Below are positions 35,117 through 39,419 of a stretch of DNA of 64,000 nt, piece by piece. The stretch's first letter is position 1, and every line of letters begins with the position of its first letter. Where the stretch lies: positions 1-64,000 of the forward strand of contig JAYZQJ010000014.1 of NCBI GenBank assembly GCA_036149055.1. Direction: 5' to 3'. This DNA comes from Myxococcota bacterium (GTDB lineage Bacteria; Myxococcota_A; Polyangia; Polyangiales; Sandaracinaceae). Made by a program: the position numbers and the translations under genes. The notes beneath the pieces were generated by a model, which saw only the letters and a program-made list of their open reading frames with translations, made no database searches and was not told the origin of the DNA.

Positions 35117-35833
35117 TCAGGGCTGGATGCGGCGGGTGCCGGCGGGGGGGCGCCAGCGGAAGGCGCTCTCGGGCACGTCGCGGTTGAGCTGCTGCTCGAG
35201 GAAGTCGAAGCGGTTCACGTTGTTCGACGAGTCCACGATCATGATCCGGTGCACGACGCCGCGGCGCGACGCGTCGTCGTCGACGAAGAGCAGGATGCGC
35301 GAGTAGTGGGGCGTCGGGCGGCGGCTCCGCAGCTCGAGGACCTGGCCCTCGGAGTAGCCGAGGCGCGAGGCGTCGAGGAGACGGAAGCGGAAGTTCTCGT
35401 CGAGGCGGCCGGTGCCGGTGAGGAAGCTGAGCGCCGCGGGGAGCTGCGCGTCGCTGATCGGCTGCTGGTAGTACTGCCCGCGCTGCTGCCCCGGATCCGG
35501 CGGCTCGAAGACGGTGAGCTGCTGCCCGTCGCTGACCACGATCTTCCCGTTGGGCTCCTCGTAGTCGAAGCGCATCATGCCCGGCTTGCGGAAGCGCACC
35601 CGGCCGCGGCTCACGTCCGTCCGGTCGTAGACCCGGTTGCGGTACCGCTGCACGAAGCGAGCGCTCATCGTGCGGGTCTGGTCGTAGAAGGTCTGAACCC
35701 ACGACGCGACCTCGGCCGCGCTGGGGCGAGACTGCGCCTCGGCCGGCTCGCTGGCGCCGGCGCCGAGGAAGGCGAGGCCGCCCGCGAGGGTGAGCGCGGC
35801 CGCCCGGAGCATCGTTCGAGGGGACTTCATCAT
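35117..35833 (-). CDS. lolA: Outer-membrane lipoprotein carrier LolA family protein
   Basis: Signal peptide; ARFVQ, G.V.FRKPG.MRFDY, IVVSDG, F.W.PP.G; start uncertain (35830-35869). Confidence 0.85.
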   Translation of the reverse strand: MMKSPRTMLRAAALTLAGGLAFLGAGASEPAEAQSRPSAAEVASWVQTFYDQTRTMSARFVQRYRNRVYDRTDVSRGRVRFRKPGMMRFDYEEPNGKIVVSDGQQLTVFEPPDPGQQRGQYYQQPISDAQLPAALSFLTGTGRLDENFRFRLLDASRLGYSEGQVLELRSRRPTPHYSRILLFVDDDASRRGVVHRIMIVDSSNNVNRFDFLEQQLNRDVPESAFRWRPPAGTRRIQP

Positions 35834-36128
35834 CGTTCTCCGCATGGACTGACCGGCCTTGTCCTTCATTCAGCCGAGGCCCGCAAGTGGGCCGCGCAAC
35901 ACCCGCCGACGCGGCGCTGTTCCCGCCGGGGGCCAGCGCTCCGTCCTGCCCCATCCCGCGTCCGTGACCCCCGTGGGGCGATGTTGATCAGCCGTCACGT
36001 CCCGGCTACGATGAGGCCGTCTCGGGTCATCGGGCTCGGGTCTTCGGCTTAGGCTTTCCTTGACACTCAGTTTCTGTTCACCGTGCCTCTCGAGAGGAGA
36101 GGGGCAGCGGTCATTGGACGGAGGTTCC

Positions 36129-36329
36129 ATGAGCAGGTCTCAGCGCCGAATCGAAAGCAACAAGAACATCTCCCGGCTGGAAAAGCGCCACAAGCAGCTG
36201 AAAGCTGAGGTCGCGGAGTATGAATCGAGGCTGGGGCTCAACCCTGAGGAACAGGTCAGACTACAGAGGCTGAAGAAGGAGAAGCTAGCGACGAAGGACG
36301 AGCTGAGTCGGATCTCGTCCGTACCGTAG
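36129..36329 (+). CDS. Small coiled-coil protein, YdcH/DUF465-like
   Basis: LEKRHKQL...RLKKEKLATKDEL signature; GGAGG RBS; TTGACA at 36060. Confidence 0.8.
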   Translation: MSRSQRRIESNKNISRLEKRHKQLKAEVAEYESRLGLNPEEQVRLQRLKKEKLATKDELSRISSVP

Positions 36330-36347
36330 CCCTCCCATGACGCGATG

Positions 36348-36380
36348 ACGGCAGAGGTTCTCCTCTGCCGTTTTTCTTTT
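36348..36380 (+). terminator. Intrinsic terminator
   Basis: ACGGCAGAGG-TTCT-CCTCTGCCGT followed by TTTTCTTTT. Confidence 0.85.
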
Positions 36381-36398
36381 CTCCCGTTCGTCCGCGCC

Positions 36399-36851
36399 TC
36401 AGGCGTCCGGAGCGGCTTCGTCCGTGGAGGGCTCCTCCGCGGGCGCCTCGCCCCCGGCCGTCTCCTCCTCGACCGCTCCCGCCTCGGGCGGGCGGTGGCT
36501 CATGCCGCGCGGCGTGAGCTCCACCAGGGTCCGGTCCATGATCTGGCGCCACTCCGGCCGCAGCCCCGCGCCCTGATCGCCGGCGACCTCGCGCGCCACC
36601 GCCAGGTAGTGCAGCGCGTCGAGGCGATGCCCGAGGCGATACTCGGTCATGCCGCGCAGGTAGTAGTACCGAGCGCGCATCTCGAGGTCCATCGTGGGCG
36701 CGTCGTCCTCGAGGTCACGAAGCCAGATCAGCGTGTCCTCGTAGCGCGCCTGCTCGTAGGTGGCCTCGGCGCGCTGCATGTCGTCGCTGATCGCCGCGCA
36801 GCCGGTCGCGCCGATCGCGAGCGCCAGCACCGCCCAGTTGAACCGCTTCAT
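36399..36851 (-). CDS. Hypothetical TPR-like lipoprotein
   Basis: MKRFNWAVLALAIGATGC lipobox; YYYLRGMTEYRLG. Confidence 0.8.
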   Translation of the reverse strand: MKRFNWAVLALAIGATGCAAISDDMQRAEATYEQARYEDTLIWLRDLEDDAPTMDLEMRARYYYLRGMTEYRLGHRLDALHYLAVAREVAGDQGAGLRPEWRQIMDRTLVELTPRGMSHRPPEAGAVEEETAGGEAPAEEPSTDEAAPDA

Positions 36852-37010
36852 GCGGCCGAGCGTATCAGAGCCCCGCCGCCGCCGGAATGTAAGGCGACCG
36901 TGGGGCGTCTCCCCCATGGCGGTCGCGCGAGCGCGAGGTTACCCTGATCGGGAAGTCGCGCTTCACTCGATGCCTTCAGGCGGAAGAGGCGCGGCCGTTC
37001 GGATCGAGCA

Positions 37011-37048
37011 GAAAAAGGAACGCCCGGCGAGCTGCAACTCGCCGGGCG
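37011..37048 (-). terminator. Intrinsic terminator of the candidate sRNA
   Basis: 11-bp stem CGCCCGGCGAG/CTCGCCGGGCG followed by TTCCTTTTTC on the minus strand. Confidence 0.85.
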
Positions 37049-37352
37049 AAAGACCCGGTCACCCGGGAAGATTCTGCGAAGTCAGGCTGTCGAGAAAAAA
37101 GTAAGCAACCAAGCCGGAAGCAAGTAGATAAGGAAGCTCGTCAGCTGGCCGCGGCTCCCTCGACGAATCGAGGTTGCGATCGAAGCGGACAGCCCAAGAA
37201 AGAAAGCGAAGCTGGAATGGAGCCCGACGGGGTCAAACGGCCGGTCTCCGAAGCTTCGGCTCGAAAGCCGAGAAGCTGTTAAGCGAAGAAGCTCTGGTTG
37301 GCAAGCAAAGGGCAGTAGGAAGCGGTCGGGGTTCGCCTCGGCCGCTTTCTGC
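37011..37352 (-). ncRNA. Candidate sigma-54-dependent sRNA (~340 nt) with repeated GCUU motifs
   Basis: Bounded by a -24/-12 promoter and a terminator; 5' hairpin; U/C-rich; 14 GCUU motifs; no credible ORF. Confidence 0.65.
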
Positions 37353-37362
37353 GTTCGTATGA

Positions 37363-37379
37363 AGCAATCGCGGTGCCAG
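37363..37379 (-). promoter_or_regulatory. Sigma-54 (-24/-12) promoter
   Basis: CTGGCACCGCGATTGCT = TGGCAC-N5-TTGC consensus. Confidence 0.85.
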
Positions 37380-37472
37380 CGAGGCCTCTGAAGGGGCCTC
37401 GGCGAAAAACCCAATGATTCTCAGATCGGCGCCCCGAGCCCATCCCGAACCGGCCGCGTCACCGCCTGCGCA

Positions 37473-37492
37473 CCATGACATCGGTGTCATGG
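37473..37492. promoter_or_regulatory. Candidate enhancer-binding-protein site
   Basis: CCATGACA-TCGG-TGTCATGG inverted repeat 120-140 bp upstream of the predicted TSS. Confidence 0.45.
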
Positions 37493-37565
37493 GGGGCCGA
37501 ACGCGAACGGGGCCCGGCGACGGATCGCCGAGCCCCGTGGGCTGAAGTCGGGTCAGACGACCGGG

Positions 37566-39419
37566 TTACCGGGCTTTACGCGCCACCACCGCGGCGAGCC
37601 CCAGGGCCCCGAGCGCGTTGAGCAGCAGCCACGGGCCGATCATCGCCTCGGGCAGGAGCGCGAAGCGGAGGGTCGGCCAGAGCGCCTCGACCGCCATGAA
37701 CGCCGCGCTGCCGATCCCGAGCCCGACGAGCAGCGGGCGGAGGCGCTTCACGTGGTAGCCGAGGGCCACCGCGCCGAGCGTCGGCAGCGCGCTGACGAGG
37801 AGCAGCGCGCCCCACGCGCCCAGCGGAGAGGCGGCCGCGCCCAGCGCGCCGAGCGAGAGGAGCCCGCCCAGCCCGCCGAGGCCGGCGAGCGCCCAGGGGA
37901 GCGCGCCGAGCCCGCCGGCGCCGACCACCGCGAACGCCGCCGTCCCGGCCGGGGCGACGCCGAGCGCCTGCTTGCGGCGCAGGCCGAGCAGCACGAGCAG
38001 CGAGAGCCCGAGCGCCGCGGCGCCGCGGGCCAGGCCGCCCTCCTGCGTCGCCTTCGACAGCGCCGCCGGCGCCTGCACCAGGCCGGAGCCATACCGGTGG
38101 GCGTCGCCGAGGTCGTCGGCGCTCTGCTTCAGGATGCGCTCGACCGAGTCGGGATCGGTCACGCCGTTGGCGTAGAGGAGCGCGGCCACGCCGGCGACGT
38201 GCGGGGCGGCCATCGAGGTGCCCTGCCAGGCGAGGTAGTCGAAGCGCGCGGTGTCGCCGCGGACCATCGTGTTCTGCAGCACGCCGTCCGGCATGCCGTC
38301 GCCGTTCTGGTCGACCCGGAGGTCACCGCCCGGCGCGACCACGTCGAGCCCGGTGCCGTAGCAGGAGTAGAAGGTGAGCTCGCGGTCGTAGCGGACCGCG
38401 CCCACCGCGACGACGTGGTTGGCGCGCGCCGGGTACTCGACCCGGCTGCGGCTCGAGTTGCCGGCCGCCGCGACCACCAGCACGCCCTTGCCGTGCGCGT
38501 AGTCGATGGCGCGCTGCACGGCGCGCGACGGCATGCCCCCGCCGAGCGACATGTTGATGACGTGGGCCCCGTGGTCGGCGGCGTAGCGGATGGCGGCCGC
38601 GATGCCGCCCCAGCCGCCGGTGCCGTTCCGGTCGAGCACCTTCAGCGGCATGATGGTCGCCTCGGGCGCGACGCCGGCGACGCCGACGCCGTTGTGGGTG
38701 CTCTGGGCCACCGTGCCGGCGACGTGGGTGCCGTGCCCGTGCTCGTCGTCGGGGTGCGCGTCGCCGTCGACGAAGTCGTAGCCTTCGGCGAAGCGGGTCT
38801 GGCCGAGGTCGGGCGCGAGGTGGAAGCCCCCCTCCTCGCGGTGGGCGACGCCGGTGTCGATCACCGCGACCACGACGCCGGCGCCTCGCGACATCGTCCA
38901 CGCCCGAGGCATGCCGATCTGGTCGAGGTGCCACTGGTGCGGGTAGTAGGGGTCGTTCGGCACGAAGCGGTCGGGATCGTCGGAGGGCGCCGGGGCCTGC
39001 CCGGTCGGGCGGACGTAGGCGGCGGCGTCCGGGAGCGACCAGCGGCGCTCGACCTCGACCACCTCGACGTCGGGGTCGTCCGAGAGCGCTCGGATCACGT
39101 CGTCGATCTCGCTGAGCGGCGGCTCGATCCGGAAGAGGTTGGCCTCGTCGCTCAGCTCGTCGCCGAGCGCGGCCTCGCCGGCCGGCCAGCGGAAAGGCGC
39201 AATCGCGCGCACGATCCGGGCGGCGGCGTCCGCGTGGTCCGCGTCGCTGGCGCCGTCGTCGAGGTCGACGAGCACCGCGCCGGTCGGCGGATCCACCGGC
39301 CCGGAGAGCGGGGCGGCCGAGGTGACGAGGCCGTCACCGGTCCGCGCGGTCACGGAGAAGATCACCATGACGAGGAAGGCCGCACCGAAGAGGCCGAGGA
39401 TCCACAGATGTCGCTTCAA
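37566..39419 (-). CDS. Subtilisin-like S8 serine peptidase with C-terminal transmembrane helices
   Basis: VAVIDTG, HGTHVAG, AAAGN, GTSMAAPHV; TTG start with GGGGAG RBS. Confidence 0.93.
   Translation of the reverse strand: MKRHLWILGLFGAAFLVMVIFSVTARTGDGLVTSAAPLSGPVDPPTGAVLVDLDDGASDADHADAAARIVRAIAPFRWPAGEAALGDELSDEANLFRIEPPLSEIDDVIRALSDDPDVEVVEVERRWSLPDAAAYVRPTGQAPAPSDDPDRFVPNDPYYPHQWHLDQIGMPRAWTMSRGAGVVVAVIDTGVAHREEGGFHLAPDLGQTRFAEGYDFVDGDAHPDDEHGHGTHVAGTVAQSTHNGVGVAGVAPEATIMPLKVLDRNGTGGWGGIAAAIRYAADHGAHVINMSLGGGMPSRAVQRAIDYAHGKGVLVVAAAGNSSRSRVEYPARANHVVAVGAVRYDRELTFYSCYGTGLDVVAPGGDLRVDQNGDGMPDGVLQNTMVRGDTARFDYLAWQGTSMAAPHVAGVAALLYANGVTDPDSVERILKQSADDLGDAHRYGSGLVQAPAALSKATQEGGLARGAAALGLSLLVLLGLRRKQALGVAPAGTAAFAVVGAGGLGALPWALAGLGGLGGLLSLGALGAAASPLGAWGALLLVSALPTLGAVALGYHVKRLRPLLVGLGIGSAAFMAVEALWPTLRFALLPEAMIGPWLLLNALGALGLAAVVARKAR

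Follow-up and report, generated by a model that had tools for sequence, protein, structure and literature searches.

Titration of a protein by an RNA that carries many copies of a short motif is an established pattern for the CsrB/Rsm RNAs and for CrcZ. CsrB/CsrC and RsmX/Y/Z are stand-alone RNAs with many copies of one short motif, poor sequence conservation, variable length, paralogues and one upstream activator, and CrcZ/CrcY of Pseudomonas are RNAs of 350-400 nt with a sigma-54 promoter, an enhancer and repeated unstructured motifs. Two other kinds of repeat are comparable, namely the pyrimidine-rich motifs repeated within one sRNA in the Cuckoo/alpha-r14 RNAs, and the (G/U)AG-N2 repeats bound by TRAP, in which trinucleotide units lie about 5 nt apart. 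CsrB and CsrC are named as protein-sequestering RNAs in the available part of 10.1101/2025.09.11.675593. For myxobacteria, the available part of PMC5568312 presents Pxr of M. xanthus as an sRNA of 108 nt with three stem-loops, located behind nla19; its promoter is predicted to be of the sigma-54 type, and its host has no Hfq. No description of the GCUU-repeat RNA was found in the open-access literature searched; PMC5568312, 10.1101/2025.09.11.675593, PMC11841059, PMC8035640, PMC11697453, PMC8538405 and PMC7910581 were used for comparison.

The RNA considered here lies in the window, the whole stretch of 64,000 nucleotides that was analysed, from a Sandaracinaceae genome (G000). Its elements and neighbours are:

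37011 to 37352, minus strand: predicted non-coding RNA of about 340 nt, with ends and strand predicted
37364 to 37378, minus strand: sigma-54 (-24/-12) promoter TGGCAC-N5-TTGC, a sequence match, accompanied by the enhancer at 27 of the 30 syntenic loci read
37318 to 37349, minus strand: 5' hairpin of predicted pairs, with two-sided changes in the family
37200 to 37212, minus strand: core GCUUCGCUU(U/C)CUU, in DNA GCTTCGCTT(T/C)CTT, the one long stretch of the RNA body without variation, identical in all 8 aligned family genomes
37011 to 37048, minus strand: intrinsic terminator-like hairpin (stem 37048-37021) with a U-rich tail, TTCCTTTTTC
37475 to 37490, minus strand: palindrome ATGACA-N4-TGTCAT (GACA-N4-TGTC at 37488-37477), a predicted site for a sigma-54 enhancer-binding protein
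37407 to 37419, minus strand: AATCATT box between enhancer and promoter, with 4 invariant columns in 8 family genomes and an inferred function
36399 to 36851, minus strand: TPR-like lipoprotein gene, downstream, the synteny anchor, outside the RNA
36135 to 36329, plus strand: DUF465 gene, convergent, part of the conserved neighbourhood
35117 to 35869, minus strand: lolA-like gene, downstream neighbour
37566 to 39419, minus strand: S8 peptidase gene, upstream neighbour; the upstream gene differs among relatives

The promoter proposed in the first-pass annotation was confirmed at 37378-37364 on the minus strand, and the predicted +1 therefore falls at about 37352. The predicted RNA is 61% pyrimidine and 14% A, and contains 14 GCUU, 25 CUU and no ATG; the 14 GCTT start between 37323 and 37106, eight of them as GCTTC and two as GCTTCCT, as had been counted, and the terminator with a U tract is also present. 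The gap had been described as A/T-richer than its surroundings and ORF-free. The first part holds (57-60% GC, against 70-83% in the flanking genes and 73% in the genome), but mechanical ORFs overlap the gap. Another hairpin is found at about 37535-37505, between the S8 peptidase gene and the enhancer. The DUF465 gene has its own terminator (region 36030-36372 of the window), and separate RNA contigs cover it in several runs.

A search with Rfam 15 gave nothing at or above the gathering threshold, in agreement with the earlier impression that no known family is involved. At E<=10, nine weak matches below threshold were obtained in 36000-38500, the best (31 bits against 45) on the terminator, and 16 loci searched at threshold gave 0 matches. 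The 6S RNA model (RF00013) does not match the window locus; elsewhere in the same genome, a partial sub-threshold 6S match (C139:8236-8315), intergenic and near a terminator, may be a divergent 6S RNA. The Pxr model (RF01812) matches M. xanthus only, in 1 of 5 genomes, and not G000. The window RNA differs from Pxr in locus, length and composition, its neighbours being the S8 peptidase and lipoprotein genes and not nla19. Compared with CsrB/Rsm, the motif is CUU/GCUU and not GGA (two GGA in the window RNA; 6.7/kb GGA against 31/kb GCTT in the family), the motifs lie outside hairpin loops, the promoter is of the sigma-54 type, and the sole CsrA of the genome is fused to FliW. The sigma-54 promoter and enhancer expected of CrcZ/CrcY are matched by sequence; however, the window RNA is A-poor and not A-rich, AANAANAA occurs 0 times in the window copy and once in 42 family copies, no Hfq was found in G000, and the candidate activator is of the FHA-GAF type and not a CbrB-type response regulator. 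Neither comparison is joined by an Rfam match. The repeats differ from TRAP-binding RNA in their triplet and in belonging to a trans-encoded unit. The GCUU-repeat RNA is distinct from CsrB, CrcZ and Pxr, and very probably represents a real, undescribed sigma-54 ncRNA family.

Since blastn of the RNA in 60 relatives gave a long match in only one, the congener G001, the lipoprotein gene was used as an anchor. A further match, in G017, covered the terminator only, although its locus proved syntenic, and the remaining matches were due to chance. The anchor is present in 49 of 61 genomes, and the best 30 loci of these 49 were read. The palindrome GACA-N4-TGTC, the sigma-54 promoter and a pyrimidine-rich, GCTT-rich stretch occur together in 27 of the 30, including one unpublished genome (L028, G023); of the other three loci, two are truncated where their contig begins, and the third lacks a consensus promoter but has the motifs and the palindrome. 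A second sample of 16 loci added five RNA loci, and in the other 11, ten of them in family f18, no RNA precedes the lipoprotein gene. A strong hairpin with a T-rich tail is present in 45 of 46 syntenic loci, with four ends placed by hand and two dropped as uncertain; removing these two, one locus without a terminator call and one near-duplicate left 42 copies. These are 136-714 nt long (median 352), contain 11% A, and have little sequence in common. Two small genomes (L076, L077) have the RNA followed directly by an ORF that is LolA-like, as judged by eye. Within the window's family, 6 of the 11 predicted pairs of the 5' hairpin are changed on both sides in 8 genomes, and the 13-nt core is kept in 8 of 8 genomes; in distant families the hairpin is not alignable and the 13-mer is not kept.

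The window copy by itself contains 14 GCTT against 5.8 in 5000 dinucleotide shuffles (p=0.0004), a value that becomes borderline (p~0.05) if any 4-mer may win; the enrichment is firm because of the family. Among 1357 sigma-54-like sites in the genome, the window site has 14 GCTT in the next 300 nt and the runner-up has 6. Other GCTT clusters in G000 that might represent paralogues are coding or simple repeats, and the promoter was found in none of them. In the 42 copies, which were selected by synteny and promoter and not by motif, GCTT totals 397 against 167 expected and TTCGCTT 101 against 9; kin among them are not independent, and z-scores are overstated. All 42 contain CTT[ACG]?GCTT, and 41 contain CTT[ACG]GCTT. 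CUU, GCUU and CUUCG all lie far above dinucleotide shuffles, indicating that the enrichment is word-specific. Between CUU and GCUU, any of the four bases can stand at N in CUU-N-GCUU (C 87, G 23, T 9, A 1), which is unlike a fixed seed, and CTT-to-CTT spacing peaks at 5, then at 4 and 3 nt. The motif is better written as CUU(C/G/A/-)GCUU, a CUU unit every 3-5 nt, than as GCUU alone. GCTT is also strand-specific, with 31/kb in the body, 1.7/kb on the opposite strand and 2.7/kb upstream. Each copy contains 2-20 GCUU, and motif-bearing units are tandemly duplicated in several copies. The whole-RNA folding z is -2.85. The motifs are not placed in the loops of hairpins: MFE-ensemble folding leaves their UU mostly unpaired (0.71-0.77) but pairs most of their GC (0.17-0.31).

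The enhancer palindrome had been missed at first pass and is invariant across copies. GACA and TGTC were required by the selection, whereas A at position 7 and G/A at position 6, each in 42 of 42 copies, were not. Enhancer-promoter distances cluster near 55, 66, 77, 88, 99, 111 and 122 bp, in steps of about 11 bp or about one helical turn (19 distinct values, Rayleigh p 0.0002-0.003 for periods of 10.9-11.5). Such phasing is typical of a site that has to lie on the side of the helix facing the polymerase. The AATCATT box resembles an IHF site. Enhancer, 50-130 nt and promoter follow one another in 157 of 251 genomes of the order, compared with 4 matches for the backwards control. The pattern does not always mark an RNA, because G000 has two more, both before lipoprotein-like ORFs. 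One, on contig C9 (+83747), precedes a 473-aa lipoprotein-like gene. The other, on C182, has palindrome and sigma-54 promoter at 68927-69031, followed by two lipoprotein-like genes, and begins 30 bp past the end of a gene for an FHA-GAF-AAA-HTH sigma-54 activator (+67073-68897). This adjacency recurs in G000, G003, G290 and G046 (loci including L417, L415 and L065), and it makes the activator the best candidate; this protein is predicted to bind GACA-N4-TGTC. One clear orthologue (63-69% identity) is present in 5 of 5 further genomes, including two of 2.7-2.9 Mb and two Myxococcaceae, and its named relatives are from Sandaracinaceae and Polyangiales. No correspondence to a named M. xanthus gene such as Nla18 or MXAN_4899 was found.

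PilR was considered as activator and rejected, the pilA promoter of G000 being without the palindrome. As given in the available parts of the sources, the sites of P. aeruginosa PilR (TGT-N11-ACA; PMC8035640), NmpR (PMC11841059) and Nla28 (PMC7910581) differ from the palindrome. As a separate observation, pilA-like genes of Delftia, Variovorax and one Burkholderiaceae genome (L197, L201, L099, L136, L161) have TGACAAAAATGTCA some 95-130 bp ahead of their sigma-54 promoter, a candidate PilR site of Comamonadaceae. Since the palindrome also stands before pilA-like genes of Betaproteobacteria, other activators read similar sites.

The promoter and motif pattern was found in 46 of 71 genomes of f18, a Polyangiaceae-like family, where the backwards control also gave many single matches. 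Twenty strong-looking f18 loci were chosen by eye, which makes motif counts there circular; the enhancer is present at <=1 mismatch in 12 of these 20 and absent in 8. Several f18 genomes have two such RNAs each, at unrelated loci, and one RNA type adjoins tRNA-Arg(ACG). Family f28, from another order, shows the promoter with CTTGGCTT motifs in 6 of 34 genomes, as judged from their first 80 nt. A strict class-wide pattern matched 8 of 201, missed even G000, and is no measure of range, and a pattern scan of named genomes covered half of the collection with many chance matches. In other Myxococcota (L096, L123, L181, L210; L107, L114, L121, L066, L068), units with enhancer, sigma-54 promoter, ACUU/GCUU motifs and terminator occur away from the lipoprotein gene, and are probably distant members or a sister family.

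A looser pattern matched less than its control in four Myxococcaceae genomes, and none of its matches resembled the GCUU RNA. Myxococcus and Pyxidicoccus (L173, L128, L118, L206, L410, L414) have the GACA-N4-TGTC enhancer, in two copies, and a sigma-54 promoter before a different ORF-free unit. It consists of a 5' hairpin and 2-4 tandem repeats of about 70 nt with two hairpins each, is without an Rfam match, and is flanked on one side by an NAD-dependent epimerase-like gene and on the other by a lipoprotein gene in convergent orientation. In G496, this repeat unit is the only exact match of the enhancer and promoter pattern.

The stretch is present in six RNA runs of four studies, and the RNA is covered in 6 of the 7 RNA runs compared; the runs were found by means of the window stretch itself, and contigs give no strand, ends or level. 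Three studies contain short separate contigs of about the extent of the RNA (36961-37337, 37078-37338 and 37017-37324). Two of these end at 37337/37338, which is 14-15 nt downstream of the predicted +1, whereas a DNA run extends past this point; this is a weak hint of a discrete transcript. Contigs of three runs, X13 and X17 among them, extend into the neighbours. The RNA is uncovered in X22, from the same sample as X17/X18, and X21, X23 and X24 contain next to none of its words. Taken together, the DNA elements are conserved across the order Polyangiales with a repeated motif and no conserved reading frame, and conservation in relatives supports the separate sigma-54-driven non-coding RNA predicted at first pass. 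The locus very probably represents a real, conserved sigma-54 family, that is, a transcribed ncRNA gene.

The GCUU-repeat RNA probably acts as a CsrB/CrcZ-like protein decoy with a new motif, a reading that we place at a probability of about 0.6. The motif is kept while the sequence is not, many copies of a short motif standing on a non-conserved backbone. A variable motif number on a free backbone, tandem growth and paralogues are by analogy the pattern of protein-titrating RNAs. First, the conserved FHA-GAF-AAA-HTH activator would bind GACA-N4-TGTC and fire the promoter, which would place the RNA under Ser/Thr-phosphorylation and GAF signalling. Second, the loosely structured body would offer a CUU every 3-5 nt to a single-strand-binding, probably oligomeric protein, with decoy capacity set by copy number and not by sequence. 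Third, in what is the weakest step, the protein, when not bound to the decoy, would recognise this motif within the opening codons of mRNAs that encode lipoproteins and other exported proteins, and induction of the RNA would alter their translation or handling.

Regarding the protein, Hfq (TIGR02383) was not found in G000, which is 96% complete, and only one CsrA domain was found, fused to FliW among flagellar genes. The fusion is a single 199-aa protein in the flagellar cluster (C132; L218:1057-1656). Candidates in G000 are one CspD-like cold-shock protein and four to five RRM proteins (five RRM hits). Among five small or distant genomes, CSD occurs in 5 and RRM in 4; the search for RRM_1 drew a blank in G038, although this genome bears the RNA. 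As a clue to autoregulation, the leaders of the RRM and CSD genes in G000 were inspected and are not GCUU-rich. For RbpB of Bacteroides, the available parts of the literature give no matching motif.

If the RNA is a decoy, target mRNAs should carry its motif in the sense orientation; if it acts by pairing, they should carry the complement. Within codons 1-15 of 752 predicted exported-protein genes of G000, with expectations from amino acids and N-terminal codon use, GCTT occurs 182 times against 99 expected and CTT-N0-2-CTT 58 times against 12, while the complement AAGC occurs 59 times against 61. In a Myxococcaceae control of 100 exported genes, the values are 22 against 21 for GCTT and 3 against 2.8 for CTT-N0-2-CTT. 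Of all orderings of its seven letters, TTCGCTT comes out on top (11 against 1.0), and inspection by eye suggests export for about 39 of the 43 genes in which the strongest motif lies close to the start. For the broader class with a hydrophobic N-terminus, the strong motif is seen in 31 of 1556 genes (2.0%) in G000, in 4 of 234 (1.7%) in the control, and in 0 of 79 in two RNA-bearing f18 genomes. TTT, ATT and TCT-TCT are also enriched in the exported-gene codons of G000. With codon counts fixed, the enrichment of the RNA's top 5-mers is no higher in N-termini (1.25) than in gene bodies (1.27), and that of the 6-mers is 1.59 and 1.34; much of the word order is ordinary codon-pair bias. The codon test comprises one control genome, G000 and 34 genes of two f18 genomes, with starts and signal peptides called by a rough script, and exported-protein mRNAs as the target class are a lead and not a result. 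Two side observations concern the same genes. Exported-protein genes of G000 often look leaderless; a rough rule places a TANNNT box 5-8 nt before the ATG in 539 of 5249 genes. Their signal-peptide codons also end in U about twice as often as the codons of other N-termini do.

The first-pass annotation had offered protein titration and pairing with AAGC/AGGAAG-containing regions side by side. Titration is favoured by the comparative evidence, with several candidate partners, and no support was obtained for this form of pairing. As a base-pairing sRNA, the RNA would use its GCUUCGCUUYCUU core against purine-rich AAG/AGGAAG initiation regions or a purine-rich sRNA, which we consider rather unlikely. 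The 13-nt core behind the hairpin, invariant in the window's family, could be a seed, and CUUCCUU-type words are potential partners of Shine-Dalgarno regions. For Pxr and MXnc1 of M. xanthus, pairing with such regions without Hfq is reported in the available part of 10.1101/2025.09.11.675593. However, a 22-nt core against 1500 sampled start regions gave 167 sites below -18 kcal/mol, compared with 179-463 for 12 shuffles (a thermodynamic estimate in one genome), and AAGCGAAGC is rare in start regions (4 sites), where the sense word is enriched. Moreover, the central base of the motif is variable, and distant families are without the 13-mer. The Cuckoo/alpha-r14 RNAs have CCUCCUCCC in hairpin loops; the window copy contains no CCTCC and shows no pairing advantage.

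Rho and ribosomal protein bS1 prefer pyrimidine-rich RNA. The RNA body of the family, 61-70% pyrimidine, A-poor and weakly structured, could serve as a decoy for general C/U-liking machinery (Rho, bS1 or an RNase) and not for a dedicated regulator, but the enrichment of the particular words CUU, GCUU and CUUCG exceeds what a general C/U preference needs, and this explanation is improbable. A long 5' leader or attenuator, from which transcription would continue into the lipoprotein gene in response to some signal, would account for the shared orientation, the fixed synteny in most families and the RNA contigs that span RNA and neighbours (X13, X17). Against this, a strong terminator stands 40-330 nt before the gene, the RNA precedes other genes or a tRNA-Arg in f8, f17 and f18, the lipoprotein gene lacks it in most loci of the second sample, and a contig across two genes does not prove one transcript; a leader is likewise quite improbable. 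That the locus is a small-peptide mRNA or neutral low-complexity spacer is scarcely credible: mechanical ORFs (110 aa and 85 aa on the minus strand, 114 aa on the plus strand) cross the gap and some copies contain simple tandem repeats, but both minus-strand ORFs have flat codon-position GC (GC3 0.65 and 0.59, against 0.94-0.97 in real genes) and are interrupted by stops and frameshifts in G001, ATG is absent from 12 of the 42 copies, the window copy among these, and no reading frame is conserved. Neutral DNA, for its part, would not be expected to show a conserved promoter, a phased enhancer, a covarying hairpin and a terminator.

Titration of a protein by the GCUU-repeat RNA invites a wider view, which is tentative and in our judgement possible but doubtful. 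Polyangia would possess a third global protein-decoy system beside Csr/Rsm and Hfq-Crc/CrcZ, in which a protein reads CUU repeats where mRNAs of lipoproteins and secreted proteins encode the signal peptide, and a sigma-54 RNA family, fired by the FHA-GAF activator, titrates this protein to retune the surface and secreted proteome. In Myxococcaceae, the same ancient switch would drive the unrelated tandem-repeat RNA, the output having been swapped. The enhancer also marks this apparently undescribed repeat RNA in M. xanthus. Myxobacteria are without Hfq, and the open-access literature surveyed yielded one well-studied sRNA from them, Pxr, which is restricted to a different lineage; the group of predatory myxobacteria that has the GCUU-repeat RNA includes large producers of secondary metabolites. 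That an order-wide RNA family is preserved solely through its motif and promoter suggests that a conserved RNA-binding protein has gone unrecognised, for which the RNA provides a bait already in hand, and the family also supplies a candidate activator together with its DNA site.
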